From the NCBI GenBank assembly GCA_016203305.1, contig JACQMY010000036.1:1886-65885 (forward strand): a DNA stretch of 64,000 nucleotides, in the 5' to 3' direction. Of this stretch, positions 29,448-51,000 are shown piece by piece. A program made the translations under genes and the position numbers. Each line of letters begins with the position of its first letter. Positions within the stretch are counted from its first letter, which is position 1. Origin of the DNA: Candidatus Woesearchaeota archaeon (GTDB taxonomy: Archaea; Nanobdellota; Nanobdellia; Woesearchaeales; ARS49). The notes under the pieces were generated by a model that saw only the letters and a list, made by a program, of their open reading frames with translations, made no database searches and was not told the DNA's origin.

Positions 29448-29448
29448 G

Positions 29449-31742: not shown

Positions 31743-31743
31743 A

Positions 31744-33681
31744 TTACCTTTTCGTTTTTTTCTTTATCCTTGGATCTTCATGCTGAACAGTTTCACGCGC
31801 TTCCTCGCGGGGTTCTGGACTCGTTTGTCGTTTTTGCGGCTCTTTACCCATAAGCACCTGAAGCCTTACGGCGATTTCCGCGAGTTGCCGTGCAGACGCG
31901 CTGACCTGTTGAACCGCAGCGCTCGTTTGCTGCATGGATGCACTTACTTGCTGCGTGCCGGCGGCATTCTCTTCAGCAGTCGCGGCAAGCTCGGTCATAG
32001 CAGCGACTATTTGCTGTGTGCCTGCTTGTTGCTGCTGCGTCGCCGCAGAAATCTCCTGCAACTGGGACGAGATACTTTGGGCAGCCAATGAGATATCTTT
32101 CACCGCATTGAGCGATGCGCCGATTACCTCCGAACCCTGGACGACTTGTTCCGCCCCCTTCTCCATCGAGCTTACCGCAGCATTCGTACTCTGCTGCATG
32201 TCCATGATAAGCGCGGAAATCTGTTCGGCAGCCCTTCCTGATTCTTCAGCAAGTTTTCTGACTTCATCAGCGACCACTGCGAATCCCCTGCCTTGCTCTC
32301 CTGCACGGGCAGCTTCAATGGCCGCGTTCAACGCAAGCAGATTTGTCTGCTCGGCGACGTCGTTGATAGTTTTGATGATTGTGCTTATCTTCGCGCTTTT
32401 CTCACCGAGCGCTTTTATGCCCGCCGTCGAGTCTAGAACACTGGTTTTGATAGCATCCAAATTCTTAACGCCCCGTTCAGCCGCGGTTCCTGCATCAATC
32501 GCTTTTTTGCTCGCATCAGCCGCGCTCTTCGCTGATTTCTGGGCGTTGTCCGCAACCTGGGTGATGGCTGACGACATCTCAGTGATGATTTTCCCAACCT
32601 CTTCAACCTTCTCGGTCGCCTTCGTACTTGATGCTGCCATCTGCTGAGTCGTAGAAGCTATCTCTTGAGTGGCGGATGCGGTCGAAGTGCTGGTTTCAGA
32701 GAGCTGTTCTGACGCGGTAGCAGTGTTCAAAGCAGTATCTTCAATTGTTGCGAAAATCTTTCTTATTAGGAAAAAGCTTACGAATCCCGTGATAAGCATC
32801 GCAACGAGCCCTATCAAAGAGAGCATTGTTGCGAATTGTTCACTTCTTTCCATCTCCCGCATCGTGATTGGTTGGAGTTCCTCATCGAGAAGCACATCCA
32901 TCTCACGGCTTGTTTTTGTGAACAGGTCTATATCGTACGTTTGCCTGTCTTCGTCAGCAATAGTCTCCTTTGTCAACACGCTTATCTTTTGCAATTCCAT
33001 CTTTATTTCCGCAAAGAAATCACGTTCTGCCTGAGAAAGCTCCAAGGTCCGATACCCATCCAGCAACAGTCCAGCACCAGCGATAGCACTATCGACACTC
33101 GTTTTCAGCTTTTGATCGGGCTTTATGAGATACAATTGCAGCAAAGACGTGATTTCGTAAGTCTTGCTTTCCAGCTTGAGAATGAGTTCCTTTTTCTCTC
33201 CCGAACGCGAATCATCCACTCTCAGCGCGCGTACATTGCTCGCAAGAAGTTCGCGCACCTTTTCTTCCAGCCGCAGCCGTTCTTCTCTTTTTTGGATCTG
33301 CTGATCCTCGAGCGCAAAGATTTCCTTCGCTTGAGAGTTGAATTGTTTCATAAACTCTCCGAACCGCAGGAGTGCGTAGCGTTCTTCATCGGTGCGCACA
33401 AGGGCGAGATACGCAGCATACTCCCGGTTCAAATCGTCACTGTTATCGGCAAACTGCACCTTTTCCTCAGGATTCTTTGTCGCTAGATAATCAACTACGT
33501 CTTTTGCGAATTCTTTTTGATTGATTTCCAACTCCATCGCCGCTTGAACCTTGGGAGTTGCATGTCCAACAAGTTCAACGACAGTCGAGCGTATAAAGAG
33601 AAGACTGCCGCCTGCTACCATCAGCACAATGAGAAACAAAGTTATCAATTTGGATTGAGCACCAAACTTTAGTTGAACCAT
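31744..33681 (-). CDS. methyl-accepting chemotaxis protein (two transmembrane segments, HAMP, signalling domain)
   Basis: Highly conserved signalling hairpin '...[34 protein letters not shown]...'. Confidence 0.9.
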
Positions 33682-34010: not shown

Positions 34011-35237
34011 ATGAACATAGGAACAAAACTCGTCTTACTTTTAATAACGGCAACAGGCATAGTTGCAGCAGCAGAGTACTATGCGCTCAGAACCATCAAC
34101 CACCCAATAAGCTTTGAAGTCCTCGCACTCACCGTAGCGCCACTCCTTTCAGCACTAGGAATAGGCATGCTGATGAGCTACAACGTCAGCAAAAACATCA
34201 AAAAACTAACGCACACAATAGAAGATATCAGCAAAGGAAAACTAGACGTGCACGTAGCAGGAAAAAACAGACAAGACGAAATCGGCGAACTCGCAAGAGC
34301 GTTCGACAGAATACTTGTATCGCTCAAGCTGGCAGTGGAAAAAGTAGGCCTGAAAAAAGAAGAACTCAAACTAGGGGAAGCACTAGAAGCAAAAGAAATC
34401 GCAGAACACCTAAAAAGAGAAGCAGAAGAAAGATACAAAGTACTCGCACAAACAAGCCCAGACTGCATCACCCTACTAGACAAACAAGGCAAAGTAGTCT
34501 TTATGAATTCAAGCGGGCTAAAAGAACACGGCTTCAAACAGCTAAGCCAAGCAGTAGGGAAAGACTACTTGGCATCAGCAATGAAAGACGAGTACAGAGA
34601 ACAAGGCAAACACGCGCTAACAAACGCGCTCAAAGGAAAAACAACAACACTGGAAGTCCAACACCGCACAATAGGCGCGCCAGAATGGAGCCTGGATACA
34701 TATACTCCTGTGAAGAGCGAGAAAGAGGAAATTACCCACATCCTGGTGCTCAGCAGAAACATCACAAAACTCAAAAAAACAGAGTCACAACTAGTAACAC
34801 AACGCAACTTCGTACAAGAGATGATAACAGGAGCAGGAGTGCCGATAATAGCATTCGACAACCACGGAAAACTCTTGCTTACGAACAAGACTCTTACGAA
34901 ACTGACAGGATATGAGCACATCGCGACCAAGCAAAACTGGCTGGAGACTGCATTCCCGACTGAGGCCAGAGAAAAGGTTGCCAAAGCGATTAGCGATGTT
35001 CAACGAGGGCAAGCAGTCACTGACTTTGTGACACCCCTGCGCTGCAAAGACGGAAGAGACATAATAGTAGTAAGCAACATCAGCCCAATAAAAGACGAGA
35101 AAAACAACATAACAGGAACAGTCATGTTCATGAGAGACCTAAGCGAAATATTCACACTAGAACAACAAATCATGCACTGGGCAAGCCAAGACCTAAGAAA
35201 ACCAGCAAACATAGAAATAACCAACCATAAGAGTTAA
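34011..35237 (+). CDS. membrane-anchored HAMP/PAS sensor protein with no kinase domain
   Basis: N-terminal transmembrane segments, HAMP, two PAS-like segments ('DCITLLDKQGKVVFMN', 'PIIAFDNHGKLLLTN'). Confidence 0.6.
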   Translation: MNIGTKLVLLLITATGIVAAAEYYALRTINHPISFEVLALTVAPLLSALGIGMLMSYNVSKNIKKLTHTIEDISKGKLDVHVAGKNRQDEIGELARAFDRILVSLKLAVEKVGLKKEELKLGEALEAKEIAEHLKREAEERYKVLAQTSPDCITLLDKQGKVVFMNSSGLKEHGFKQLSQAVGKDYLASAMKDEYREQGKHALTNALKGKTTTLEVQHRTIGAPEWSLDTYTPVKSEKEEITHILVLSRNITKLKKTESQLVTQRNFVQEMITGAGVPIIAFDNHGKLLLTNKTLTKLTGYEHIATKQNWLETAFPTEAREKVAKAISDVQRGQAVTDFVTPLRCKDGRDIIVVSNISPIKDEKNNITGTVMFMRDLSEIFTLEQQIMHWASQDLRKPANIEITNHKS

Positions 35238-35296: not shown

Positions 35297-36046
35297 ATGG
35301 TCAAACGCGTTCAAACAGGAATAAAAGGATTTGACAAACTAGTCCAAGGAGGACTCCCAGAAAACTCAGTAACACTCCTAATCGGCACGCCAGGAACAGG
35401 AAAAACACTATTCTCACTGCAATACTTGCATAATGGAGCCACTAATAAGGAAAAAAGCATGTATGTGACTCTTGAACAGAGCTTGGAAGACATCAGAAGC
35501 CAAGCCAAGGATTTGGGAATGGATCTTGCGAAGGCAGAAAAAACAGGCATGCTGACGCTCATGCACATCCCAATACACGATCTAACTTTGAACACAATAG
35601 AGCAAATCAAAAAAGAAGCAGAAAAACGCAAAATCAAACGATTAGTCATTGACAGCATCTCAACACTCGCAGTAAATGCGCCAGTCTACACTCCTTTGAA
35701 AGATCTTGCACTCAGGGATGTCATGAACTACAAAGCATTCTTCTCACCGCCAATACTGGGAGACTTTGTGGTGAAACGATTCATCTACGGATTTTTATCA
35801 GATTTAAAACAACTGGGATGCACAACCATTGTAACAGGAGAAGCGCCAGAAAAAGGAGAATTCCTGACAAGGGATACTGTGAGCGAGTTTATTGCAGATG
35901 GCATAGTGAGCATCACCTTTGAGAGCATGGGAGGACAATACAGCAGGAGCCTACTCGTGCGCAAGATGCGAGGCACGAAAGCAGACGAGGACATACATCC
36001 ACTAGAAATCACTGACAAAGGACTTGTCATTCACACAGTCAAGTAA
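35297..36046 (+). CDS. KaiC-like RecA-superfamily ATPase (single domain)
   Basis: 'GIKGFDKLVQGGLPENSVTLLIGTPGTGKTLFSLQY' Walker A. 'LVIDSIS' Walker B region. Confidence 0.75.
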   Translation: MVKRVQTGIKGFDKLVQGGLPENSVTLLIGTPGTGKTLFSLQYLHNGATNKEKSMYVTLEQSLEDIRSQAKDLGMDLAKAEKTGMLTLMHIPIHDLTLNTIEQIKKEAEKRKIKRLVIDSISTLAVNAPVYTPLKDLALRDVMNYKAFFSPPILGDFVVKRFIYGFLSDLKQLGCTTIVTGEAPEKGEFLTRDTVSEFIADGIVSITFESMGGQYSRSLLVRKMRGTKADEDIHPLEITDKGLVIHTVK

Positions 36047-36058
36047 ATTTGTCGAACG

Positions 36059-36688
36059 TCACAAACGGACTTTGCCCAAATCAGGCACGACTTCCTCAAA
36101 AACAAACTTATTCGCCTTTACCAACGGGTCCTTCTTATTCCACTTGTCCATCGGGCGAACAACAAACTCGCAATACGGCTGGCCCTTGGCAATACATGAA
36201 GTCTCTATACAAGCAGTCTTCTTTCCAAGAATGTATTCAAGCACTCCAGCCCATGCGCCAGCGTTCCAATAATCAACAGCCTCCTTGCTTAGCCCAAGCG
36301 TTGCCTTATAGACCTTCGCATACGAGCAATTCATATGCAAAATGAAGTGCTCATTTTGAAAATCCATACGCACCCACTCTGAAGAACCATACCCAAGCAA
36401 GTCTGATTGTCCAGAACTAAAAAGAAGCAAGTCCTTTTTGCTTTTGAACGTCTGCGAATAGCCAAACTTTTCGCCTGTTATGCGAACACCCATATACGCC
36501 TGGAACTTCTCTGAAAAATAGTCTATCTTCTTGCGCGTATCACCTTTAACCAGCTGATCAGTGAGCCGGTCACGAACGAGAACACCTATTATCGGGTTAA
36601 TAAGACATGAGTGACCCCACAACGTCACCTCTCCCTTCTCATGCTTAAGCGCATCAAAGCGCAGTGCCTTTTCAACAATACTCGGCAT
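36059..36688 (-). CDS. V4R-domain (4-vinyl reductase-like) protein
   Basis: C-terminal 'CIETSCIAKGQPYCEF' cysteine pattern typical of V4R domains. Confidence 0.45.
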   Translation of the reverse strand: MPSIVEKALRFDALKHEKGEVTLWGHSCLINPIIGVLVRDRLTDQLVKGDTRKKIDYFSEKFQAYMGVRITGEKFGYSQTFKSKKDLLLFSSGQSDLLGYGSSEWVRMDFQNEHFILHMNCSYAKVYKATLGLSKEAVDYWNAGAWAGVLEYILGKKTACIETSCIAKGQPYCEFVVRPMDKWNKKDPLVKANKFVFEEVVPDLGKVRL

Positions 36689-36696
36689 AAAAACCC

Positions 36697-37806
36697 CTAG
36701 CCTTGCCGAGTATAAATAGCTTGTGTCATCACTTTCAACTCAAGTCTGTCAAAATGCTCGCGAAAGGACGCTATCAGTTCTTCTGTTCCGTGCATCACGG
36801 GAGCCTCCCCATCCAATCTTGTCGTCAGCAACACACAATCGTAACGCCGCCCTTCTTCCTCGTACCACGCAGGAAGATAACCACTCATCCTAAAACGCTG
36901 GTTCGGAACCCCATTAAATTGGGCACATAACTGCGCGATGAGTTCAGCCTTATCCGCTAACACATACATCGAGACATGCCCGGCAACAGTTGATATTGGT
37001 TGGGCGGGCGTTGCTTGCGGTGCGATGAAATCCCAGATTAAACGCAACGCATCGGAAACATTATCCGCATTCACTCCTGTTATCGCGAGACACTTGCTTG
37101 GTTCAAAGTCAGCAAATGCCACTCGCCCATAACGCGATTCGTATGACCTCTCAGCCGCAGGGCCAACAATGAGCCTAGCAGGATACTGCCCGATATTTGT
37201 CTCAAGATCAAACTGTTCAACAAGCCTTGTTAGCTCCCTGCTCTTCCCATAAAGAGGATTTTGGGGAACAACGCGCGAAAGCGTCTTATGTGGATTATAG
37301 ACAAAACACATCAGATGCTCTTCACGAACCCCTGAGACTATATGCATCCCTCCATCGCTTCCGACAACTGCTATTGGCGGGGTGGTCTTCTCAAGCAGAC
37401 GTTTCATCAGGTCAGAACGTGGATACCCAAACACCATATCGCAATCGGGACGATGGAATGCTGTTTGCAACACCATCTCATAGAGAAACTTCCCTATATT
37501 GCGCCCATTGTACGACCCACGTGTCACACTCCTACAAGTCTCATAACTCTTATTCCATGATTCGGGCTTTGCAACAGCAGCACCCACGAGTTCACCTTTG
37601 TCAAATGCAACCATCCATATATGCTCATTTTTCTCAATTATATCATTGATCCGCACAGGATCAAGACAATCAACAATTGGATACCCTCCTTTGTAAACCT
37701 CATCATAGAGCTTTGCAAGCTTATGAGCATCGCTTGGAACCGCACTCCTATAATGAATCGTGCCCTGATCATCCGTACGTGAAAACCCTTTCTTGAATGG
37801 AACCAT
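36697..37806 (-). CDS. hypothetical protein with an N-terminal GNAT-like acetyltransferase region
   Basis: 'IHYRSAVPSDAHKLAKLY...GELVGAAV' GNAT-like. Weak call. Confidence 0.4.
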   Translation of the reverse strand: MVPFKKGFSRTDDQGTIHYRSAVPSDAHKLAKLYDEVYKGGYPIVDCLDPVRINDIIEKNEHIWMVAFDKGELVGAAVAKPESWNKSYETCRSVTRGSYNGRNIGKFLYEMVLQTAFHRPDCDMVFGYPRSDLMKRLLEKTTPPIAVVGSDGGMHIVSGVREEHLMCFVYNPHKTLSRVVPQNPLYGKSRELTRLVEQFDLETNIGQYPARLIVGPAAERSYESRYGRVAFADFEPSKCLAITGVNADNVSDALRLIWDFIAPQATPAQPISTVAGHVSMYVLADKAELIAQLCAQFNGVPNQRFRMSGYLPAWYEEEGRRYDCVLLTTRLDGEAPVMHGTEELIASFREHFDRLELKVMTQAIYTRQG

Positions 37807-37905
37807 AACCGCCTCTTTCTACCGACAAACTTTGCCAGCTACGCAAAAATTATACCAACCGCTACAAAAATATTCTCGCTATTTAAACATTTGGAACGAT
37901 TATCG

Positions 37906-39471
37906 TCACAATCGTACGGAATTTCGGTTTATACGCTCAACAGCATAACGCAGAAAGCCCACATCACCCTCCTGAATAGCAACCCTGCAACTCGCATTAA
38001 ACTCGTGGCACTGCGCTCTTCGCCCATCTTGCTCCAAGCTAAGCCGACCATGATACAAATCAGCCATCAAAACAATCTCATCAGATAACGAACGCATACC
38101 TTTTTGTGCGATCTGCTTGGCAAACCTGCCACTCACCTCAAATGGATTGTCAACGAATTCTCCATTCACCCTCAACTTCCATGGCGGCTTAGGCCACGAC
38201 CCGGAGGGCTGCAACAAATCAATCTCATATGCCATCAACCTGGCCACGTAGCCCTCCTCAAGCAAAATCCCCTGGGCAGGGTCAGCAGTCTTCATCAGCA
38301 CTGTGCCTGGCATAGGCCACATCGGCAAAACAGGAGTGAAATCAGGATTTGTCCTTAACAAGAAATCAAGCGTACGCGCCATACTCTCATCAGTCTCGTT
38401 GGGAGCAGGAACAATGCATGACGCAACCGAAGGAATTCCATGTTCCTTGAGAGAATGAATCAACACTTCGGCGTTGCGCACATACTCGATAGGATCATCC
38501 GCCTTTTTCATATCACGCAAAATAGCAGGATCAGCCGACTCAAGACCGATGAATACACCACCAACAAGCGTTTTTGACAGAAGATCAAAATCGTACCCTA
38601 CATGATCTGCCCGTCCAAACGCGCTGAACCTGGCGCCTTCTGGAAGCATTCTTGCTGTAGCGTTCACATATTCGACCTTCGGATCCGGACCACTCAGCCG
38701 AAAGATGTTGAACCCGTACGTCCTCTGATTAAACTCCACCTCCTTTATCAAGCCAGCAACACTCTTCTCTCTAAAACGCCCGCCGATACGCGGATGAATA
38801 CAGAATGTGCACTTTCTCCAATCACAATTCCTGCTATCCTCTATCGCATACACCTTAATCTTCTCATCTATACCCCGATAAACAGCAGGGTCATATGTTG
38901 GGTAAGGCAAGCCGTCTAATTCCACTTCTTGCTTTTTATTGCGAGCGGTATGCCCGCCTTGGCGATAAATCGCGCCAGGAATACGCGAGACCTCTGCATC
39001 CTGCGCAATTGCACGAATTGCAGCATCACCCTCACCTGCGACCAATGCATCAAACACATCACTCCCATAAGCAGACCGTGCATAGCCAAACACAGAATCA
39101 CCAAACCAACTCACCTGAGGTCCACCGCCAAAAACCCTGATGTCTGGGTTACGCTCCTTCAGCCTGGCAGCAATCAACACTGAGTCCTGAAAACCGTTTG
39201 CGTACAACTTGAAACCGATTTTTCGCACGCCGTGCTCCTTAATGAACGCATCCAACTCCGCGACCACTCCGTCCAGAAATCCCTGCTTGCCATCTCTTGC
39301 AATCTTTTCAATCGAACCAACCGTACTGTAATCAAATATCACCGGAACAAGACCTTCCTGCGCCACTTCTGCACCAAGCAAAGCAAGACCATTATCAAGC
39401 ATTAAGCCACTAAGCAAAGGCCCTTTGCTTTGTACTGCATAGCTAACCAGAGGGAAAACCTCTTTTACCAT
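37906..39471 (-). CDS. B12-binding radical SAM protein
   Basis: N-terminal Rossmann-like B12 domain. 'RNCDWRKCTFCIHP' cysteine cluster (C-x4-C-x2-C). Confidence 0.6.
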   Translation of the reverse strand: MVKEVFPLVSYAVQSKGPLLSGLMLDNGLALLGAEVAQEGLVPVIFDYSTVGSIEKIARDGKQGFLDGVVAELDAFIKEHGVRKIGFKLYANGFQDSVLIAARLKERNPDIRVFGGGPQVSWFGDSVFGYARSAYGSDVFDALVAGEGDAAIRAIAQDAEVSRIPGAIYRQGGHTARNKKQEVELDGLPYPTYDPAVYRGIDEKIKVYAIEDSRNCDWRKCTFCIHPRIGGRFREKSVAGLIKEVEFNQRTYGFNIFRLSGPDPKVEYVNATARMLPEGARFSAFGRADHVGYDFDLLSKTLVGGVFIGLESADPAILRDMKKADDPIEYVRNAEVLIHSLKEHGIPSVASCIVPAPNETDESMARTLDFLLRTNPDFTPVLPMWPMPGTVLMKTADPAQGILLEEGYVARLMAYEIDLLQPSGSWPKPPWKLRVNGEFVDNPFEVSGRFAKQIAQKGMRSLSDEIVLMADLYHGRLSLEQDGRRAQCHEFNASCRVAIQEGDVGFLRYAVERINRNSVRL

Positions 39472-39545
39472 GCACCCTGTAAGCCTGCGTTCCTATAAAA
39501 GCATTTGCCGAAAAAGCTATAAACACCCGTATCACTATAGGTTAC

Positions 39546-40295
39546 ATGCAAGCAGAGGATATTATCGGGCTTTTTTTGACTTACTCTGCCGAGCTCGATT
39601 CGGCAATACGAACACACAAACTTTTTGAACCCTTCTTCACTAAAAGGTTCAACGGAAGAACCATCGACCAGCTCAGAGCAGCCCACGCAGCATACCATCA
39701 TGTCAGCGCAGGATACACGCATTGGACTGTGCCGCTCCTTCGTGCGGGTGGAGAAGCGCTCGCAAATGGCGACGCAGAGGACAAGGCGTGCAGCAAAGCA
39801 TACGTAAAGAACGCAAATGACGAGATCGATCATAGAGGCCATTATGGACACGATCGCTGGGCGCTCAATGACATACAAGCAATCGGGTTCCCCGAACACC
39901 TTGCGCATTCACCTGCACCTGTAATCGTGAATGGAAAATATAAGCAATTCATGGTTGATAACGCAAACCTACACCCATATGGTGGATTGGGCGCAAAAGG
40001 AGTGCTTGAACATCTAGCAATTCACGTATCAGGCGATTTCTGCGAGGGCTTTCGCGCAAGCGGCATTCCAAACATAGAGAACGGCCTTGTTTTCCTTGCC
40101 CAACATGGCATCTTGGACCTTGACCACACAAAAAGCGGGAATGATGCCGTACGCAGCATAAGCTCTCCTGCCAAACTTGAGCAGATCGCCGAAGGATCAC
40201 GAATCACCCGAGAGCAATACCACCTGTTCCTTGGTGCAATGAATGAATCATACGAGTTCTTCCTTCGATCTCTACAAACCCAACGAAACACTTAA
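39546..40295 (+). CDS. hypothetical His-rich protein
   Basis: ORF track; 'HAAYHHVSAGYTHW', 'DHRGHYGHD'. Confidence 0.4.
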   Translation: MQAEDIIGLFLTYSAELDSAIRTHKLFEPFFTKRFNGRTIDQLRAAHAAYHHVSAGYTHWTVPLLRAGGEALANGDAEDKACSKAYVKNANDEIDHRGHYGHDRWALNDIQAIGFPEHLAHSPAPVIVNGKYKQFMVDNANLHPYGGLGAKGVLEHLAIHVSGDFCEGFRASGIPNIENGLVFLAQHGILDLDHTKSGNDAVRSISSPAKLEQIAEGSRITREQYHLFLGAMNESYEFFLRSLQTQRNT

Positions 40296-40332: not shown

Positions 40333-40710
40333 ATGGCAAAAAAAGCAAGTTCTGGGACAAAAACGATCATGATTGTTGATGATGAAGAAGACATACGCGA
40401 AACAGCCAAAACCATCTGTGAAAAAGCAGGATATGAAGTGATAACGGCGGCCAATGGAGACGACTGTCTTGAAAAGCTCAAAAAGGCCAAGCCAGACCTT
40501 ATACTAATGGACATTATGATGCCTGGCACTCCTGTCAAGGAAGTGGTCAAAAAAATCAAAGGCGTGCCGATCGCATATTGCAGCGTAGTTAGAACATCTG
40601 ATGCAGAGCGAGAACAACTCCTACAAGAAGGAAACGTCGTCGATTTCATACAAAAACCGTTTGACATCAACGACCTCCTCAGACGAGTGAAAAAACTGGT
40701 GGCTAAATGA
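40333..40710 (+). CDS. single-domain response regulator (receiver)
   Basis: 'IMIVDDEED', 'LILMDIMMPG', 'KPF'. Confidence 0.8.
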   Translation: MAKKASSGTKTIMIVDDEEDIRETAKTICEKAGYEVITAANGDDCLEKLKKAKPDLILMDIMMPGTPVKEVVKKIKGVPIAYCSVVRTSDAEREQLLQEGNVVDFIQKPFDINDLLRRVKKLVAK

Positions 40711-41219
40711 ACCTGCTGAAAGAGCTCCAGGACAACCAAACAGTCCTCATGCTCATGCCAGGAATGGATTACAAAAATACCATCCTGGAAACTGCCAAGG
40801 CTCTAAACGGCAAAAAAATCTGTTACATAACCCTCAACCGCACCTTTGACAGCCTAAAAGAACTCTTCAAAAAACACGGCATCAAAACGGAAAACACCAC
40901 CTTTATCGACTTGATAACAACACTTATCACAAAACCAGCCCAAACGCGAAATGTCCACTTCCTCAACCCACACCAGGCAGCGGAAACATTCGCATTCATC
41001 GCCAGCCAGCTAAAAAACAACTACGAATACATCATCTTTGACAGCATCACAAACCTGTTCAGCTACCGCGACATCGAAGACGTGGAACAATACATATTTA
41101 TAATCATAAACAAAATCAGGCAAACAAGAACTGTCATCTACGCGCTTGACGAGCAAGAAACACGCATCCCACGATGCTGCATGTATGTTGACAAAACAGT
41201 AAGGTGTACAAAAAAATGA
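40707..41219 (+). CDS. degenerate KaiC-like (RecA-fold) protein lacking Walker A
   Basis: 'YIIFDSITNL' aligns with the KaiC Walker-B region 'IVIDSLSAL'. No GxxxxGK[ST]. Paralog of the next gene. Confidence 0.45.
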   Translation: MNLLKELQDNQTVLMLMPGMDYKNTILETAKALNGKKICYITLNRTFDSLKELFKKHGIKTENTTFIDLITTLITKPAQTRNVHFLNPHQAAETFAFIASQLKNNYEYIIFDSITNLFSYRDIEDVEQYIFIIINKIRQTRTVIYALDEQETRIPRCCMYVDKTVRCTKK

Positions 41220-41734
41220 TACTTGACACTGCATTACAAGGCAACCAGGTAGTCCTTCTATTCATCCCTTCAGAAAAATACAACGAAGCAACGATCGACG
41301 TAGCCAAGAAGTTCTCCAGCAAAAAAGTATGCTACATTACCCTAAACAAAACTTATGAACACCTCAGCCAAACATTCACCAGCAAGAACATAAACATCAA
41401 GAACTTCTTCTTCATAGACGCAATAAGCAAAATATTCAAAGAACCAGCCACAACAGACCCCCGCTGCCAAGCAGTAACCCCTGGAAATCTGACAGAACTA
41501 GCATTAGTAATCTCTGAAGCGCTAACAATGAACTTCGACTACATAATCTTTGACAGCCTCACAAACCTCCTGGTATACCAAAAACATTCGGACATACTCA
41601 AATTCATAATGGACCTCTGCAGCAAGGTTAAAACATCCAAAACAAAATGCGTCCTCTACACAATGCAAGAACACCAGGAAATAATCCAACGCGCATGCGT
41701 AATGGTAGACTCGTGCGTCAACTGGGGCAAATAG
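41204..41734 (+). CDS. degenerate KaiC-like protein, tandem paralog
   Basis: 'YIIFDSLTNL'. Same architecture and length as the preceding gene. Confidence 0.45.
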   Translation: MYKKMILDTALQGNQVVLLFIPSEKYNEATIDVAKKFSSKKVCYITLNKTYEHLSQTFTSKNINIKNFFFIDAISKIFKEPATTDPRCQAVTPGNLTELALVISEALTMNFDYIIFDSLTNLLVYQKHSDILKFIMDLCSKVKTSKTKCVLYTMQEHQEIIQRACVMVDSCVNWGK

Positions 41735-41771
41735 GCTTAAATAATATATCATCTGAGTTCTATAAAAAAAG

Positions 41772-43379
41772 ATGAACCTGCAAAAAAAACTAACCATAAT
41801 AATCATAGGCATAGTTCTCATTCCAGGACTTGTAGCCTATTTCACAGTCCAGAAATCACTTGAACATGCCTCCAAGGAAGAAGCAACAAGCTACGGACTT
41901 CCAATAGCGCAACAAATCGCGAAAAATGCCGCCCCACTAGTAATACTCCAGCAAAGACAAGCCATCCATGAACTCATCACCCAAGCACGAGACCCACGAA
42001 TTTCTTACATAGTCATCACAAATCCACAACAAAGAATTCTGGCCAACACAGGAAAAATTCCTACAAAACTACCGCCTTTAACCGGACAGGCAACACTTGC
42101 AGAAGTAGATGGTGAAGAACTTTACGCCATAAGCTCCAAGCTCCCGCAAGAATTAGGAGAAGTCACAATAGGCATTAACACAAAAATGCCCACCAGCAAC
42201 ATCCTTCCACTAATCATACTGAGCACTATCCTCGCAGCAATAACTGCAATCTACACAACATCCAGAATAGTCAGCCCATTACGACAAATTTACAACTCAG
42301 CACACGAACTCAGCCAAGGAAATTTCAACACGAGAATAAACGTCAAAACAGGAGACGAACTGGAAGAATTAGGGAACACGTTTAACCAAGCAACAGAAGC
42401 ACTCGGCAGAATAGACCAAGAAAGAAAACAAATAGACCAAGCAAAGACAAGATTTCTCAGCATAACAAGCCACGAGCTAAGAAGCCCAATGACGCCCATG
42501 AAAGCACAATTGCAAATGCTCGGACAAGGATACTACGGCAAGCTTGGAACAAAGCAAAAACAAAGCGTGGAAATGGTGTTAAGAAACGCAGACCGATTGG
42601 ATTCAATCATTGGTGACTTCCTCGAAATCTCGCGCATAGAAGCAGCAAGACTAAGATTCACCTTCCAAAAAACAAACATTGCCGAAATTGTGCTTGATGT
42701 TGTAAAATACATGAACACATTTATGCCAGACAAAAAGGTAAGTCTGACCACAAAGCTAGGAAAACTGCCAGTTATCGAAGCAGACCCCAACCGCATAAGC
42801 CAAGTACTGCGCAACTTATTAAGCAATGCAATAAAGTTCTCACAGCCCAACAGCACAGTCACCATCGCGGCTGCCGTCAATGGAGAATTCATCGAGTTCA
42901 GCGTCCGCGACACAGGAATAGGCATTTCACAAAAAGACCAAGCAAAACTATTCGAGCCATTCTTCCAAGCAGAACAAACAATATACCGAGAAGGAAAAGG
43001 AGTGGGGCTAGGACTGGCAATCTGCAGAGGAATAGTACTAAGCCAAAACGGCAAAATCTGGGTTGAAAGCCAGCCAGGCAAAGGAAGCACATTCTTCTTC
43101 ACCCTGCCACTAACACCAGTAAAAGAAATAAGACCAATACGCGTACTATTCTCCAGCAAAGAAGCAATTGACCGCAAAATAAAAGAAGCCTTCAAAGAAA
43201 TGCTGGGACCCATCGGCAGCAGCGAATTTGACGACCTCAGACAAAACCTCACCCACGAAAGTCTCAGAAACTACGTAGACGAGCTCAGGAAAAGAAACAT
43301 AATAACACCAGAGCTTGCAGAACAATTCAAACACAGAGTAAACCACGCACTAATGGCAGATGTACATCATGTGAAGTAA
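41772..43379 (+). CDS. sensor histidine kinase (transmembrane, HAMP, HisKA, HATPase_c)
   Basis: 'ITSHELRSPMTPM' H-box. 'LRNLLSNAIKFS' N-box. 'DTGIGIS', 'GKGVGLGLAICRGIV' G-boxes. Confidence 0.85.
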   Translation: MNLQKKLTIIIIGIVLIPGLVAYFTVQKSLEHASKEEATSYGLPIAQQIAKNAAPLVILQQRQAIHELITQARDPRISYIVITNPQQRILANTGKIPTKLPPLTGQATLAEVDGEELYAISSKLPQELGEVTIGINTKMPTSNILPLIILSTILAAITAIYTTSRIVSPLRQIYNSAHELSQGNFNTRINVKTGDELEELGNTFNQATEALGRIDQERKQIDQAKTRFLSITSHELRSPMTPMKAQLQMLGQGYYGKLGTKQKQSVEMVLRNADRLDSIIGDFLEISRIEAARLRFTFQKTNIAEIVLDVVKYMNTFMPDKKVSLTTKLGKLPVIEADPNRISQVLRNLLSNAIKFSQPNSTVTIAAAVNGEFIEFSVRDTGIGISQKDQAKLFEPFFQAEQTIYREGKGVGLGLAICRGIVLSQNGKIWVESQPGKGSTFFFTLPLTPVKEIRPIRVLFSSKEAIDRKIKEAFKEMLGPIGSSEFDDLRQNLTHESLRNYVDELRKRNIITPELAEQFKHRVNHALMADVHHVK

Positions 43380-43582: not shown

Positions 43583-44107
43583 ATGATACAAAAATATTCC
43601 AGATATAGAGTTTTGCAACAGTTTTTTGATTTTCCACGCAAAGCATTCTTGATTCGTGAGCTTTCGAGAAATACGAAGCTTTCAGTGCCTTCGGTTCGTC
43701 TCCACATTAAGGCTTTGCGCGCTGAAGGGCTTATCATAAAGGACAACACTGGCCTGTACCCTTCATTTAGAGCAGTGAGGGAAGACTCTTTGTTCAAACT
43801 TCTGAAAGCTCAGAACATGGTTTTAAGGCTCCATCAAACAGGCATTCTGAGCACCATCGAGAAAACTACGTACCCGTCTTGCATTGTGCTATTCGGTAGT
43901 GCTTCCCGAGGCGAAGACGCTGAGGAAAGTGATATTGATTTGTTCATGCAGGCAAAGCGAGTGAACCTTGATTTGAGAAAGTTCGAAAAGGCTTTGAACC
44001 GAAAGGTCAATCTTTTATTCGAACCCGATATGAAAACAATCAGTCCAGAGTTGCTCAATAATCTTGCAAACGGAACGGTAGTGTATGGGTATTTGAAGGT
44101 GATTTGA
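43583..44107 (+). CDS. minimal nucleotidyltransferase (MNT) with an N-terminal wHTH
   Basis: 'LFGSASRGEDAEESDIDLF' GS...DxD motif. Confidence 0.7.
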   Translation: MIQKYSRYRVLQQFFDFPRKAFLIRELSRNTKLSVPSVRLHIKALRAEGLIIKDNTGLYPSFRAVREDSLFKLLKAQNMVLRLHQTGILSTIEKTTYPSCIVLFGSASRGEDAEESDIDLFMQAKRVNLDLRKFEKALNRKVNLLFEPDMKTISPELLNNLANGTVVYGYLKVI

Positions 44108-44539
44108 TTGGAACCATGGACTGAACAATCTGATAAAGTAAGCAAACAACGACCTGACACTGAAAAAGCTCGCGCACTCCTCAAGATGATCGCCCTTCGA
44201 GAACAACGTGCCCAAATAACACCCCTTCCACAGTTTGCCACCTTGTTAGCAGAAGAACTATACGAAATCGTCAAGGAACTCATAACTGGAATAATGAGCG
44301 TTGACGGTTGGAAAACCGCCAGTCATGAACTGCTAATTGGATACCTCGCCAAATTCTATCCTGAATTTAGCACCGCAGAAGTCATGCTCTTGGATCAACT
44401 TCGGGAAATGCGAAACGATATCGCATACCGAGGCGTCATGATAAACCCAGAATATCTAGAGAGAAACCAACAAAATATCTCCAATGCCATTCAAAAACTC
44501 AAACAAATACTAAACGCAAGACTCAACAAAACAAGATAA
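44108..44539 (+). CDS. HEPN-like partner of the MNT
   Basis: Helical 143-aa protein directly abutting the MNT. 'LREMRNDIAYRG' occupies the position of the R-x4-6-H motif, but the His is not conserved. Confidence 0.45.
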   Translation: MEPWTEQSDKVSKQRPDTEKARALLKMIALREQRAQITPLPQFATLLAEELYEIVKELITGIMSVDGWKTASHELLIGYLAKFYPEFSTAEVMLLDQLREMRNDIAYRGVMINPEYLERNQQNISNAIQKLKQILNARLNKTR

Positions 44540-44975: not shown

Positions 44976-46046
44976 ATGCGTCACGTCGTCATCGCGCTAG
45001 CCGCATTGGTAATACTCCTCGGACTTGCAACAACCCTTGACAGAATTTCACTAGCACCTGCTGTTGTTGTAGAAACAATCATCCAATGCAACGATGGAAC
45101 GTTCGCACACTCACCAGAAGAATGCCCACTTCCACCAGTTCCAACACCAGTACAATTTGAAAGCACTGCATCAGCAGCAGTACAACCACAAATCACAATG
45201 CAGGAAGACCCGATCGGAAAAACATTCCTAAAAAAAATGCCACAAAATTACGTCTACAACAAAGGAGAACTTCCAATATACGCGTCAGGGCCAAGCAGAA
45301 GCACAGGAGAATGGCCGTTCGTCGCACCAGGAATACTCTACTGGAACGTTGAAGACAATAAAGCACTCTACGTCTACCCAGGAGATATCTCACCAGGATG
45401 GTGGGCAGAATACACAAACCAAACAAAACAGGTGATCACCACTGACCTGGTCGGCGCAAGCCTCTACCCCGCAGCACTAATAAGACTACAACTCACAGGA
45501 AACAAAGACCTTGACGAAAACCTGCTGCCAAAAGAATTCCTCAAATACTTCAACTTCCTCTTCAGAGGCACTTTACGCGAAGACAACATAATAAGAACCA
45601 TCGAACCATTCTACAGCAAAAGCCCAATAGAATGGTTTGCCAACTATGCAAGCGACCAGCCGGTCAAAGTCGATACCAAGGAACGAGTTCTCCCAACCAT
45701 TGGCGGAAGCATAATGAGCAAGCTCTCACTACACTATTCAAGCAAGGAAACGACCCAACGCATTCTACGAACACAAGAAGGAAGCGCCTACGAATACAAA
45801 CCAACCCAGTCAGCAGAAATAGTTTTCCGCTTTGATCCAAGAGGAATACCACTAGTTATCGACGAGCTTGACACAGAAGGAAACCTAATCGAAAGACACA
45901 CTTACACAGTCCAGACAACATACAACAGAGATGGCGTGATGAACACCCCAGTGGATCCAAGAATCGTAAACCTACCACCACACCTAATTGTAACAGTCCA
46001 AGACTGGGAAAAATGGACAAACAGCAAAGAAAACATAATGAGATGA
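44976..46046 (+). CDS. hypothetical secreted or membrane-anchored protein
   Basis: Start set at the internal Met (MRHVVIALAALVILLGL, signal/TM). The longer ORF from 44856 would overlap the tRNA. Confidence 0.45.
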   Translation: MRHVVIALAALVILLGLATTLDRISLAPAVVVETIIQCNDGTFAHSPEECPLPPVPTPVQFESTASAAVQPQITMQEDPIGKTFLKKMPQNYVYNKGELPIYASGPSRSTGEWPFVAPGILYWNVEDNKALYVYPGDISPGWWAEYTNQTKQVITTDLVGASLYPAALIRLQLTGNKDLDENLLPKEFLKYFNFLFRGTLREDNIIRTIEPFYSKSPIEWFANYASDQPVKVDTKERVLPTIGGSIMSKLSLHYSSKETTQRILRTQEGSAYEYKPTQSAEIVFRFDPRGIPLVIDELDTEGNLIERHTYTVQTTYNRDGVMNTPVDPRIVNLPPHLIVTVQDWEKWTNSKENIMR

Positions 46047-46999
46047 ACATGGACGCCCCTGAAAGTACACTAGAAGAACATAATCCAGAACAAGAAGCCA
46101 AAAACCTGCCAGAAGAACAGGCAACGCCTTCAGCCGGCCAACAGCGCAAGAAAAAACAGCCTGCGCAAAAACCAACCAATAAAAACTCAAACGAGCAAAT
46201 GGATTTCTCAAAACTCAAAGAAAAACTCCAACAAACCCAAAGCGCGCCTACCATCGCCATATCAGGCAAAACGCACGTAGGCACAGGAATCGACGGCATA
46301 GACCAACTGTTTGCCAAAGGAATCCCCCGCGGAAGCACAACACTGGTTGTCGGAGGACCAGGAAGCGGCAAAACAATCTTCTGCCTGCAAACCCTATACG
46401 AAGCAGCAAAAGCAGGAGAGAAAGTCCTCTACATGACACTAGAAGAAGACACTGAAAGACTAAGACAACACATGAAAGACTTCGGATGGGATATAACGCC
46501 ACTAGAAAAAAGAGGCTTCTTTGTAATAAAAAAATTCAACCCAATGGACATCACAAGACAAATGGACGCAATGCTTGAACAAGTAAGAGGAGAACTCCTC
46601 ATCGACCTAAAGCCGCTCTTAATCCCAAAAGATTTTGAACCAGACAGAGTGGCGCTCGACAGCCTGTCAGCAGTCGCGGCAGCACTATTTGAAAAAGAAG
46701 AAAGCTACCGCTTATACCTGGAACAACTATTCAAACTCTTCAACGACATTGGAAGCACAGCATTTTTGATATCAGAAACCCCAGACCCGACGCAAAAACT
46801 AAGCGCCACAGGAACAGAAGAATTCCTCGCAGACGGAGTATTCATCTTCTACAACGTGAGAACAGGGAACTCAAGAGAAAGCGCATTCGAAATCCTCAAA
46901 ATGAGAGGAGCAAGCTTCAAGAAACAAATAGTGGCAATGCAAATCAAAGAAAACGGCATAGTCGTCTATCCAGAACAAGAAGTGTTTACGACGATATAG
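46013..46999 (+). CDS. KaiC-like RecA-superfamily ATPase with a low-complexity N-terminal extension
   Basis: 'GIDGIDQLFAKGIPRGSTTLVVGGPGSGKTIFCLQ' Walker A. 'VALDSLSAV' Walker B region. Confidence 0.75.
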   Translation: MDKQQRKHNEMNMDAPESTLEEHNPEQEAKNLPEEQATPSAGQQRKKKQPAQKPTNKNSNEQMDFSKLKEKLQQTQSAPTIAISGKTHVGTGIDGIDQLFAKGIPRGSTTLVVGGPGSGKTIFCLQTLYEAAKAGEKVLYMTLEEDTERLRQHMKDFGWDITPLEKRGFFVIKKFNPMDITRQMDAMLEQVRGELLIDLKPLLIPKDFEPDRVALDSLSAVAAALFEKEESYRLYLEQLFKLFNDIGSTAFLISETPDPTQKLSATGTEEFLADGVFIFYNVRTGNSRESAFEILKMRGASFKKQIVAMQIKENGIVVYPEQEVFTTI

Positions 47000-47134: not shown

Positions 47135-48055
47135 TCACCCCTTTCTAAACCGGTTCAGCAACGCATACCTCCGATACTTCTGAACACCAGACTTCCAAGC
47201 AGCAAGCTCTGCCTTAACTTTCCGTCCACGCTCACGCAACTGCTCCATACGCTGCCGATATGAAAACCTGCCCATCTTACCAGCAAAATACTCCTCCTGA
47301 ACATGTTGCAAAGTCTTATTCGTTGCATCAATCACCCTTGAAGCCTCACGCTCCTTCTGCAAAGCAAACATCACGCGAAACTCAAGCCAGCCCCAAACTC
47401 CCAAAATAGCCAGGATTGCCAGAACCACAATCACACCGATCGTATGCCTCTTGACAAACTCTGTTATGTTCTTCTTTGCAATATAAGCAAACGTGCGTTC
47501 ACGAACGGCAGCAGACTCTGCCTCTGCCAAATGCATCCTAGTGGCATGCACCAAGACAAAAACTTCATCGTACCGTTCTGACTCAAAAGCATCACGCGCC
47601 TTTTCAAACGTCCGGTCAACCAAAGACATATTTACCGAAACATTCACCTGAACCAACAACGCACCCAAATCCTCCAACGCATCACGAGCGTCAAAAGCAG
47701 AAACCTTTTTCTCAGCAATCCATCGCCCAAGCTCAACCACTCTGGTTAAATTCTGACCGGGCCTCAACCCAGCACTCCGCGCTTGTGCAATCATCCTGAA
47801 ATACTCCTCAGCAAGAGGCTTTCCCTCCACTGATTCGTTCAAGTGGACAGCAGTCTGCAACAACGCGAACTCATCACGGCCAACCAAAGAGTCGTTCATT
47901 CTCAATAACGTATCTTCCAAAGAAGCATATGGAAGACCTGCCTTTTTAACCTGAGCAACATCAACAGTAGCGTTCAAAAACACCTCTTTTGCCTGCTCAA
48001 CAGAAACTGCACAAGCCAAAGAAGACAAAACAATTAACAAAAGCAACCACTTCAT
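47135..48055 (-). CDS. signal-peptide protein with a C-terminal TM helix and basic coiled coil; paralog of the giant protein's C-terminal anchor
   Basis: Signal 'MKWLLLLIVLSSLACA'. TM 'IGVIVVLAILAILGVWGWL' followed by a 'QEEYF'-type coiled coil, mirroring the C-terminus of the 4872-aa protein ('WWALALLAALALYGAL...EAQEAYF'). 4-nt overlap with it. Confidence 0.6.
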   Translation of the reverse strand: MKWLLLLIVLSSLACAVSVEQAKEVFLNATVDVAQVKKAGLPYASLEDTLLRMNDSLVGRDEFALLQTAVHLNESVEGKPLAEEYFRMIAQARSAGLRPGQNLTRVVELGRWIAEKKVSAFDARDALEDLGALLVQVNVSVNMSLVDRTFEKARDAFESERYDEVFVLVHATRMHLAEAESAAVRERTFAYIAKKNITEFVKRHTIGVIVVLAILAILGVWGWLEFRVMFALQKEREASRVIDATNKTLQHVQEEYFAGKMGRFSYRQRMEQLRERGRKVKAELAAWKSGVQKYRRYALLNRFRKG

Positions 48056-51000
48056 TTTCCCACCTCTTTCCTCAACTCTGCAATATGCGCGTCCAGCTCA
48101 GTTACCAAACTCTTGAACACCTGCATTCGAAGCTCATATCTCCTCCTGGAAATAACGTGATGAGCAAAATATGCCAATTGAGCCTCGCGCAAGCCACGCA
48201 TTGCCTCCTGGCGTTCTGCGATGGCCACCTTCAAAGCCTGATCCTTTCGGTACAAACGAGAACGCAACAAGCGCAGCCCAACCATGTCGCCAGTAATTCT
48301 TTCCAAACGCAACTGCAACTGGCCACTTGCACGCTCGAACTCCCTGCCACCAAGCTCGCGCCTGACAAAATAAGCCTCCTGAGCCTCACGCAACAACCGC
48401 TGCGCCTCAACACGCTCGCGCAACAACGCATCCAACCTGTACTTTATGAACGCAAGACGCGCAAGAAGCACTGCTTTAAGAGCGCCATACAAGGCAAGCG
48501 CTGCCAGCAACGCCAAAGCCCACCAGTACCTGCGCGCAACACTCTGCCACGTCCAAGCACGCTCTACAACTCTCAACTGCACGGCGAGCGCTTCATCTGC
48601 CAACGAGATCGCACGATCAAAGTCCTCACGCTCGAATGCCTTAACAGCAAGAGAAAGCAACTTCTCAACAGCAAGAACGTCAAGCCCTTCGTCCTCTGCC
48701 TTGTTTATCTCTGTCCTTACCTTATCCAACAAAGCGCCTGCTTCCAACTCGCGCTCCAACAACAAACGCAACTTCTCAACAACATACGCAGACTCCTTGT
48801 AATCACGTTGAACAAGAGCGTTCCTTAACATTCCGCGCAACACATCAGCCCGAGTAACAGGATAATCCTTTGCCACAACTATTGCATACAAGCTCTCCAC
48901 ATCAGTATAAGCACGCTCAACCTCATCCGATGTAACTTCTCGAATAATCAAACGGACCCGTTTGTACTCAACAACAGTCTTCCTAATCTTGGTTGAAAAC
49001 GGCAAACCATTCCTGAACTCAACACCCTCTGCTTCCAACAGAGAAGTCATTATGAAGGTTATGTTTACTTCTGATTGCTGCTCATAAGCAGGAGCGGCAA
49101 GCTCGATATCGAAAATCCTACTCTGCCCATACGGAATGTTCTCCAATGCTTGCGGGGACCAGTGAATGTATCTTGAGAGGTAGCCGTCAACAGTTAAATC
49201 AACACGTTTCATCAAGGAATTATTGTAAACGTTCGTAACAATCAACGGAAATACTATTCTTGTACCACGCTTAACCTCGATAGTCTCATTTGTCACTAAG
49301 GCAGCTCGCTCAAAAAATGTCTTCTGGAACGTGCCGGGATCTATCCCTCCACCGCCACCGCCCGCACCTCCTGCGCCACCAGCACCACCACCGCTGCCTG
49401 AGCCGCCACCTCCTACAACAAATCCAGGACCGGCAACAACCAATACTTGAGCCGTTGTACCAAGCGTCAAGTTCTGAGAAGAAAGCAGGACGCCAGAATC
49501 ATTAAACCCGTCAGCTGCAGTGCTAACATCCCTGAACCCAAGAACTGCGCCTGATGGAATCTGCACAATAATCGGCAACTCCTCACTAGCATTCGGTTCG
49601 ATCGTTCCAAAGAACGTTGACAAACCACCACCAGTTAGCACCCAATCAACAGGCAAGGTTATATTCAAAGTCACATTAGACGCATTCTTCGTGCCTCTGT
49701 TAGTTACCCTTGCAATAATCGAAATTCCTGACTGGCCACGCTGCACTTGAGACGGAATTACTGAAAAGTCGGCAAACAAGAATGCATCATCCACAGTTGT
49801 AATTGTGAAACTTGTGTTCAACTGCGCAGGAGACGCGTTCAGCGAGCTGCCAACAGTGGTCGCGTTGATAGTGATATTATTAGAGAATACACCAACAGTC
49901 CCAGGAGCAGTCGCGTTAACACCCACCATTCTGACCCCGCCAGGAGAAAGAGTAAAGTTAGTCTCGCTGAAGAAGGTGGCATTAAGAGTAGAGTTCAACA
50001 CAAACGATAAGTTCACATCCCCTGTATTATTAATAGTTATATTGCCCATCGAGATATTGACCCCCATCGGACTTGAGAACACACCCAAATTGGCAGGAGA
50101 ACGCGTCCACGTAGCCTCGAATGAAACATTAAACACTACAATTCCAGACGTGCCATTATTTCCTGCGGTGTCATTCCCAGTCATAAACACGATATAACTC
50201 CCCTCGACTGCAAGGAACGAAGCATTAAACTCACCAGTCAAGACATTGAACGACATCGACACATTTGCAAAAGAAGAACCGTTCACCACTATATGCAACA
50301 CCACAGAGTTCAAGTCAACAGCGGTGAAATTATCAGTAATGTTCGCAGTGAAATTAATCAACACTCCTGGATCCAGCGCGTCAACCGTACTCGGAGAGAA
50401 TAACAAACTCAAGAAGTCAGGAGGAGTACGGTCAACAGCAAATACCCTCGTTTCAGACGTGCTTGTATCAGCCGAAGTATCAGTACATGCAACCGCCCAA
50501 GTATAGTTGCCCTCTGACAGGCCTGAGACAGTAAAGTTTACCACTGAGTTATTCAGAACCGAAGAATTTGTCTGATTAACTGAACCATTCAACAACAATG
50601 AACAATTCAAAGTTGCAGACTCCGCGTCAGTCACGTTGGCAAAAAACAACACTGTCAAGTTTGTCGTGTTCGTCCCATTAGCAGGAGCAATGGAAACAAC
50701 AACAGGGGAGAGACCTGAAATAACCGTTGTCGACTCCGTAGCATTCACCTGCACAAACTCGCCTGACACGCTTACCGCTGACACGTTCACAGAGTTATTC
50801 AAAACAGTGCCGTTTGCAATACCATTGCTAACGTTCACCAAAATAGACAAGTTCACAGACGCGCCAGGAGAAAGATTGCCTAGCGAGAACGTACTATTGC
50901 CCGAAGCAGGGGCAGGAGAAGAACTCACAAACAACACGCCAGACGGATAGGTTTCATTCACCGTCACGTTATATGCAATCTCGCCGTCCAGATTCTGCAC

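Follow-up and report, generated by a model that had tools for sequence, protein, structure and literature searches.

A two-component operon with degenerate KaiC-like proteins in a woesearchaeal genome, and the receiver-linked protein family to which they belong

The association of the receiver (REC) domains of response regulators with inactivated KaiC (iKaiC) domains has already been catalogued in archaea by Galperin et al. in 2018 (PMC5847659), in the form of iKaiC-REC proteins in Methanosarcinaceae, REC-DUF835 proteins in Methanomicrobia and Thermoplasmata, and MEDS-REC proteins in Thaumarchaeota. That census, which included 4 complete DPANN genomes, cites Makarova et al. 2017 (mBio) on the inactivated KaiC domains and on the proposal of a KaiC signaling hub. 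Described here is an additional, stand-alone kind of such proteins, encoded in a stretch of 64,000 nucleotides (“the window”) of contig JACQMY010000036.1 from the Candidatus Woesearchaeota archaeon assembly GCA_016203305.1. Four closely packed open reading frames (ORFs) on the forward strand, at positions 40333-43379, code for a receiver-only response regulator, two degenerate KaiC-like proteins (dK-A and dK-B), and a histidine kinase (HK). The closest partner of the dK proteins is the receiver, rather than the kinase or intact KaiC proteins.

Like the iKaiC response regulators of the 2018 census, the dK proteins have a KaiC-superfamily domain with disrupted ATPase motifs that is physically tied to REC in archaeal two-component systems, and close dK relatives include literal REC-dK fusions. 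They differ from these regulators in being stand-alone proteins of ~175 amino acids encoded behind their RECs, in failing to reach the Pfam cutoffs of the DUF835, MEDS, and KaiC models, and in carrying an invariant NKT/FIDA/FDS signature of their own. In addition, the family is centered on the DPANN archaea, which were barely represented in the 2018 census, and its kinases carry a private C-terminal domain. Full-text literature searches on DUF835, on iKaiC/DUF7504, and on the combination of KaiC, DPANN, and response regulator returned nothing beyond PMC5847659, and neither the NKT signature nor the C-terminal domain of the kinases appears to have been described so far.

Single-domain archaeal KaiC proteins of the PF06745 family, such as PH0284 (2dr3) and PH0186 (2zts), share with dK the RecA-like core, the Walker B pattern hhhhDS(L/I)(T/S), and the hhhDA(S) strand motif, as read from the sequences, but dK lacks the Walker A motif, the catalytic Glu pair, and the C-terminal part of these proteins; its template modeling (TM) score against 2dr3 is 0.76, or 0.57 when normalized to the target. 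ArlH/FlaH (4yds) is likewise a small single-domain KaiC-like protein, and it works through protein-protein contacts. ArlH, however, binds ATP, autophosphorylates, and is located in arl operons (PMC10983859), whereas dK has neither the P-loop nor the arl context. The uncharacterized archaeal KaiC-like Pfam families DUF7504 and DUF7090, which have no functional annotation, give weak matches to dK. The cyanobacterial KaiC-SasA/CikA-RpaA pathway likewise connects a KaiC-fold protein functionally with a histidine kinase and a response regulator. KaiC acts there as a timer with ATPase and autokinase activity, and docking of the kinase occurs via a KaiB-like domain; in contrast, dK is apparently dead and has the receiver as its closest partner.

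Fold and sequence motifs of the dK proteins

A sequence-only reading of this locus had described a receiver-only regulator, two tandem paralogs of 170 to 176 residues, and a HAMP-containing HK, with overlapping stops and starts. The four ORFs have this layout, with ATGA stop/start overlaps at the junctions of the regulator with dK-A (40707-40710) and of dK-A with dK-B (41216-41219). The length of 170 residues holds for dK-A. The most likely start of dK-B is ATG 41216, because the NCBI protein (P0001) and the homolog alignment begin there, so that the protein would have 172 residues; 176 residues would be reached only from GTG 41204, which sits within AGGTG, a Shine-Dalgarno-like motif. dK-B is identical to the NCBI protein HY489_05840 from a Candidatus Woesearchaeota metagenome-assembled genome (MAG). 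The two proteins align over their full length with 35% identity (E=7e-36) and are thus true paralogs, as had been proposed.

The AlphaFold2 model of dK-B (predicted local distance difference test 94, predicted TM score [pTM] 0.90) was compared with the PDB using Foldseek, which retrieved FlaH (4yds) as the top match (E=6e-8), followed by PH0284 (2dr3), dozens of KaiC chains, and RadA, with a probability of 1.00. The predicted fold is thus, with high confidence, that of RecA/KaiC/FlaH, in agreement with the expectation of a RecA/KaiC-like fold that lacks a P-loop. In an hhalign comparison with a profile of 21 intact KaiC proteins from the set of related loci described below, the dK family profile aligned in three blocks, up to residue 150, with a probability of 91.7% (E=8e-7). 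The position of the KaiC Walker A motif, GTPGTGKT, is occupied by IPSEKYNE in dK-B and by MPGMDYKN in dK-A, which bears out the claim that both lack a P-loop; the Gly-Lys-Thr of the P-loop pattern GxxxxGK[ST] was not found in any of the 46 aligned members of the family. The catalytic-Glu strand of KaiC (YVTLEQS/TLEE) aligns with YITLNKT in dK-B and TLNRT in dK-A, so that the catalytic Glu pair is gone as well. What has been kept is Walker B: the IIFDSITNL of dK-A and IIFDSLTNL of dK-B, correctly recognized by the sequence-only reading as KaiC-like, align with LVIDSISTL of KaiC.

Residues N44, D68, I70, D113, and S114 are invariant in the 46-sequence alignment and Y22, K45, and T46 are nearly so; further motifs conserved in it are YITLNKT, FIDAIS, SSPG, DYIIFDSLTNLLVY, and FVDKV. 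When aligned with KaiC, Y22 coincides with the P-loop, N44/K45/T46 with the catalytic Glu, and D113/S114 with Walker B, which would put all of them in the former nucleotide pocket; D68 and I70 lie outside the part of the alignment that is reliable and hence have no placement relative to the pocket. This pattern of conservation indicates that the former nucleotide site is still under selection. As judged from its motifs, dK, which is ~60 to 70 residues shorter than the KaiC domain, is a minimal RecA core without the P-loop and the catalytic glutamates but with Walker B retained. The possibility that dK-A and dK-B are decaying pseudogenes is ruled out by the size of the family, the invariant motifs, and the confidently predicted fold.

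Curated libraries return only subthreshold matches (DUF7504, DUF835, FlaH/ArlH, and KaiC) for the dK proteins of the window. Neither of them matches PF06745 (gathering threshold, 26.6 bits) at E≤1, and weak matches to it were obtained for 23 of the 46 relatives. The DUF7504 (PF24336) scores of 15.9 bits for dK-A and 13.6 bits for dK-B are both below the cutoff of 27 bits, and DUF835 (cutoff, 33.1 bits) is matched by dK-B only, at 22.1 bits. No Pfam match to MEDS was found for the window dK proteins or the family members checked. The NCBIfam FlaH match of dK-B (E=2e-7) is also far under the cutoff, with FlaH/ArlH scores of 30.8 versus 194 and 20.1 versus 215 bits. A Pfam NMT1 match of dK-A (E=0.003) was judged spurious, being shown by just 1 of the 46 members. 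Across the family, DUF7504 (32 of 46) and DUF7090 (30 of 46) are the most frequent weak matches, and the DUF7504 threshold is passed by a few relatives (for example, the dK of locus L071, 38.3 bits, and P0210, 36.9 bits).

A homolog search retrieved 102 proteins of ~175 residues, mostly from woesearchaeotal or pacearchaeotal MAGs, and an exhaustive profile search retrieved 3,029 representative clusters (at 50% identity) at E≤1e-3, with 424 of them at E≤1e-30, so that the dK pattern is far beyond chance. The family is found mostly in DPANN archaea and Thermoplasmatota. Fusions of the dK-linked receiver with dK were detected in 12 full-length clusters (P0186 and 11 more), with a junction of ~5 residues and a REC half that is 43% identical to the window regulator; two of the loci from GTDB genomes, both from Thermoplasmatota, encode such fusions. 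An AlphaFold2 model of a REC-dK fusion (pTM 0.76) provides weak support for a fixed arrangement of the two domains. Other architectures include proteins with an N-terminal extension of ~100 residues, proteins with long low-complexity N termini, and a class of ~290 residues with a C-terminal membrane anchor. Members of this last class (P0129 and, for example, those at L024 3469-4356, L060, and L064) usually have no upstream REC and are sometimes found beside a REC-dK-HK operon; they may tether dK assemblies to the membrane.

Receivers and kinases of the dK loci

One genome per GTDB species was scanned with the motif [VI][CG]Y[IV]TLNKT, which resulted in 61 loci; ORFs were called in these loci, and iterated hidden Markov models (HMMs) were used for REC, dK, the HK catalytic core, and KaiC (the dK family HMM matches dK-A of the window at E=1e-54). 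By record label, the loci come from Woesearchaeota (16), Nanoarchaeota/Nanoarchaeia (13), Iainarchaeum (3), Micrarchaeota (2), Undinarchaeota (1), Thermoplasmatota-type archaea (7), “uncultured Methanosarcinales” (7), Thaumarchaeota (1), unspecified archaea (8), and bacteria (3, probably misbinned). A REC is encoded directly upstream of dK (-60 to +170 nucleotides) or fused to it in 52 of the 59 loci with enough upstream sequence (88%), and in 28 of 43 loci (65%) an HK gene on the same strand begins no more than 2.5 kb downstream. The conservation of these genes beside two-component genes elsewhere, on which the sequence-only reading had depended, is thus observed. An exact-protein lookup gave the same picture for six independent metagenomic or MAG loci: all six have a REC-only gene immediately 5' of dK, and four have a HAMP/dCache-HisKA-HATPase_c kinase downstream. 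The commonest layout combines two REC genes, the second one coupled to dK, with dK and HK, followed by a dCache/PAS sensor protein.

The receivers coupled to dK genes are referred to here as REC*. In the window, REC* has an intact phosphoacceptor site, with D16, D17, D60, S83, F105, and K108, of which S83 and F105 are taken, by analogy, to be the counterparts of T87 and Y106 of CheY. The residues D16, D17, D60, and K108 are kept in 59 to 60 of the dK-adjacent RECs (n=61). These RECs are 57 to 72% identical to the window regulator and share the signatures D-x-M-M-P-G-T and V-V-R-x-S, whereas 58 other RECs from the same loci lack both signatures and show 31 to 38% identity. Given the conserved site, the signatures, and the gap in identity, REC* is a distinct and strongly constrained subfamily that is predicted to be phosphorylatable.

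The genes on either side of the dK pair have the features of a classical two-component system, namely, a kinase with the H-box His and HATPase_c and a receiver with the D-D-D-S/T-K site. Besides the HAMP, HisKA, and HATPase_c domains, the HK gives a weak Pfam match to sCache_3_2 and has two predicted transmembrane segments (residues ~7 to 25 and ~132 to 157) around an outside loop of ~105 residues; its H-box reads SHELRSP. The gap between dK-B and HK (41735-41771) contains a TATA-like sequence, TAAATAATATAT, ~25 nucleotides 5' of the HK ATG, and no Shine-Dalgarno motif, so the HK gene may be transcribed from a promoter of its own into a leaderless mRNA.

The HKs encoded downstream of dK extend for 80 to 230 residues past HATPase_c; other HKs of the same loci extend for 2 to 31 residues, apart from a single HK whose 73-residue extension is not matched by the domain model. 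In phmmer and HMM searches, 31 to 35 HKs from related loci, all of them downstream of dK, contained a C-terminal domain of ~75 residues, sometimes in two copies, with the consensus PVkEikPIklLFS..LGPxGxxEF..Yi..L.k..Ii. The same searches did not find this domain in the other HKs of these loci, and it has no match in Pfam or the PDB. It may serve as a docking module that binds dK or REC*.

The closest relatives of the window locus, L010 (Woesearchaeota SURF_65) and L011, share an island in the order PAS sensor, KaiC, V4R, heme-oxygenase-like, GNAT-like, REC, dK, REC, dK, HK, x, KaiC. In a neighbor-joining tree, dK-A joins the first dK of these loci and dK-B joins the second, while the first and second RECs of L010 and L011 share 69% and 54 to 56% identity, respectively, with the window regulator. 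Together with the gene order in the relatives, these relationships indicate that the ancestral state was (REC-dK)x2 and that the second REC gene has been lost in the window genome. Two dK paralogs behind a single REC would accordingly be a derived state, REC-dK being the ancestral unit. Despite the loss of the second REC gene, no family motif is missing from dK-B, which presumably relies on the remaining REC* or acts in a hetero-oligomer with dK-A, and a single REC* probably serves such a hetero-oligomer in this genome.

Possible functions of the dK proteins

On balance, a kinase-REC*-dK system in which dK is the nonenzymatic output or adaptor partner of REC* can be somewhat favored. This view is based on the translational coupling of the two genes, their near-universal adjacency, their recurrent fusion, the absence of a DNA-binding output, and the precedent of the REC-iKaiC proteins. 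In such a system, the membrane HK would sense an outside cue, autophosphorylate, and hand the phosphoryl group to Asp60 of REC*. Translational coupling (or, in some lineages, covalent fusion) would set a fixed REC*:dK ratio, and phosphorylation of REC* could alter its binding to dK or the assembly of dK. Since no DNA-binding domain is encoded in the operon, the output would be a protein-protein switch, which probably acts via a KaiC-like ring assembly or via contact with the genuine KaiC ATPases encoded nearby. Complex formation, oligomerization, the direction of signaling, and the KaiC link are those parts of the scheme that we infer.

Several observations weigh against this assignment. The scan motif biases the 61-locus sample toward close relatives of the window genes, and the absence of an upstream REC in the membrane-anchored ~290-residue subclass and a few other members means that the partnership with REC is not universal in the wider family. 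In addition, an intact KaiC is encoded within 6 kb in only 15 of the 61 loci, a count that comes without a background rate, which makes the connection to the KaiC hub weak; a link of dK to intact KaiC ATPases is plausible. The sequence-only reading had suggested that ATP-binding-deficient KaiC-like modules paired with a two-component system serve as adaptors or scaffolds in that hub. The pairing stands, on the evidence of both fold and gene context, while the role is suggested rather than observed. The ancestral REC-dK unit, the additional loss of the catalytic glutamates, and the earlier cataloguing of REC with inactivated KaiC are points that go beyond that reading.

As an alternative, dK could be a scaffold that joins HK and REC* and tunes the specificity or kinetics of phosphotransfer, similarly to CheW or to the KaiC platform for SasA and RpaA, without being the output itself. 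The conserved REC-dK-HK gene order and the private C-terminal domain of the dK-linked HKs, which could dock on dK, would fit this role, as would the analogy with the docking of the kinase SasA on cyanobacterial KaiC. However, dK is tied to REC more tightly than to HK, its fusions are with REC, none of the top 150 representatives being fused to a kinase, and the operon would be left without any identifiable output, all of which makes a scaffold unlikely, albeit less so than the roles considered next.

The concentration of the most conserved dK residues at what appears to be the former nucleotide pocket could also mean that the pocket has been turned into a ligand site, through which dK, as a small-molecule sensor, would pass an intracellular signal to the two-component pathway. 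MEDS, treated as an iKaiC-type domain of archaeal kinases and response regulators (PMC5847659), would provide the model for such a sensor. Nevertheless, dK has no Pfam match to MEDS, and the typical fusion partners are kinases for MEDS but REC for dK. Furthermore, the HK has an extracytoplasmic sensor of its own and is often followed by a separate dCache/PAS sensor protein, so the chance that dK is a sensor seems small.

Slightly smaller still is the chance that the old ATP site, with its Asn-Lys-Thr, Asp, and Asp-Ser, has been repurposed to handle a phosphoryl group, making dK an auxiliary phosphatase, phosphate sink, or phosphorelay protein for phosphorylated REC*. The fold topology would place the invariant acidic residues and the Thr and Lys at the C-terminal ends of β-strands, as in the phosphorylation sites of REC and HAD proteins. 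A metagenomic locus (L071, 1-6191) with the gene order CheX/CheC-CheC-CheD-RECx4-CheX-like-CheC-dK-[CheC-dK] has dK directly after a CheC phosphatase gene as well as a CheC-dK fusion, P0210, amid four REC genes; matches to CheC show this fusion to be genuine (CheC 1xkr, E=3.5e-10; NCBIfam CheC, E=2e-18). In a dedicated search, however, this fusion proved to be a single cluster, and it was dropped as a strong mechanistic clue and is mentioned only as an anecdote; moreover, a RecA-fold phosphatase of receivers would be without biochemical precedent. In the boldest version, to which only a slim probability can be given, N44-K45-T46 and D113-S114 (possibly also D68) would form a phosphoryl-handling site, dK would be a new RecA-fold class of phosphate sinks, phosphatases, or relays for CheY-like receivers, and together with REC* and HK it would make up a DPANN-wide “three-component” system that, if real, would connect bacterial-type phosphorelays to the KaiC network of archaea.

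The identity of dK as a divergent ArlH/FlaH acting with an archaellum or type IV pilus motor, which could be suspected from FlaH (4yds) being the best PDB match in both sequence and fold, from the NCBIfam FlaH match, and from the complete che operon 7 kb upstream in the window, is very improbable and was rejected: the score of 30.8 versus 194 bits is far below the family cutoff, ArlH binds ATP through the Walker A motif that dK lacks, neither the window nor the related loci annotated with Pfam contain arlI or arlJ, and almost all other dK loci lack che genes.

Neighboring genes and significance

Coordinates of the operon and of other features of the window are listed in Table 1. Both intact KaiC neighbors named by the sequence-only reading are genuine, with strong PF06745 matches and canonical P-loops. 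The first of them is preceded by a sensor gene, with a gap of 59 nucleotides, an arrangement that fits a sensor-plus-KaiC module; L010 and L011 have orthologs of both genes at corresponding positions. The second KaiC also has a counterpart in the same position downstream of the HK in these two loci.

The genes between the first KaiC and the operon may represent a small-molecule pathway located between two signaling modules; its V4R, GNAT-like, and heme-oxygenase-like members are present in L010 and L011 too. The heme-oxygenase-like gene ends 37 nucleotides before the response regulator gene, but it was rejected as a conserved operon member, as a gene on the opposite strand splits the pair in both relatives. 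Further upstream is a complete chemotaxis operon, in which no CheR was seen, adjoined by the gene for a HisKA-containing mini-kinase. A general link of dK to chemotaxis was ruled out on the rarity of che genes in other dK loci. Downstream of the HK gene, a gene pair looks like a toxin-antitoxin system that, relative to L010 and L011, has been inserted between the HK and the downstream genes. The distal part of the window is dominated by a gene for a giant predicted surface protein, which is followed by a gene for a membrane protein.

Table 1. Features of the 64,000-nucleotide window (positions refer to the window; aa, amino acids)
Feature	Positions	Strand	Details
REC*, receiver-only CheY-like response regulator	40333-40710	+	125 aa; Pfam Response_reg PF00072, E=1e-21
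dK-A (paralog A), degenerate KaiC-like RecA-core protein	40707-41219	+	170 aa
dK-B (paralog B), degenerate KaiC-like RecA-core protein	41216-41734	+	172 aa (176 aa if GTG 41204 is used)
Membrane sensor HK	41772-43379	+	535 aa; HAMP + HisKA + HATPase_c
HAMP domain of HK	42258-42404	+	Pfam, 8e-13
HisKA domain of HK	42441-42644	+	Pfam, 4e-16
HATPase_c domain of HK	42783-43115	+	Pfam, 6e-31
C-terminal ~75-aa domain of HK	43116-43340	+	HK residues 449-523; family unassigned
HAMP-PAS-PAS sensor without output domain	34011-35237	+	Pfam
Intact single-domain KaiC ATPase	35297-36046	+	PF06745, E=1e-52; P-loop GTPGTGKT
Second intact KaiC ATPase	46013-46999	+	PF06745, E=3e-54; P-loop GGPGSGKT; N-terminal low-complexity extension of ~85 aa
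HisKA-containing mini-kinase	25823-26467	+	214 aa
Chemotaxis operon	26464-33681	-	MCP (31744-33681), CheW, two CheY-like RECs, CheB, small Hpt protein, CheA, CheC, CheD (26464-26973)
Genes between first KaiC and operon	36059-40295		V4R-domain protein (-), GNAT-like 369-aa protein (-), B12-binding radical SAM enzyme (-), heme-oxygenase-like “iron-containing redox enzyme” (+)
Putative toxin-antitoxin pair	43583-44539	+	HTH-nucleotidyltransferase (MNT-like) and 143-aa partner with start codon right after the MNT stop
Membrane protein	47135-48055		306 aa
Giant predicted surface protein	48052-62670	-	4872 aa; many ~100-aa repeats rich in N-x-S/T sequons; C-terminal membrane/coiled-coil region

DNA-binding outputs are missing from most archaeal two-component systems, and the mode of action of their receiver-only regulators is still an open question. 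The locus described here is a compact example of a widespread module that consists of a dedicated receiver, an apparently dead KaiC-like protein, and a kinase with a C-terminal domain of its own, built around a family of ~3,000 clusters found mainly in DPANN archaea with small genomes. Two domains, the “NKT” iKaiC family and the C-terminal domain of the HKs, can now be defined in Pfam-type resources. The module as a whole is a candidate for the missing output step of receiver-only archaeal regulators and a candidate bridge from bacterial-type phosphorelays to the proposed KaiC signaling hub.

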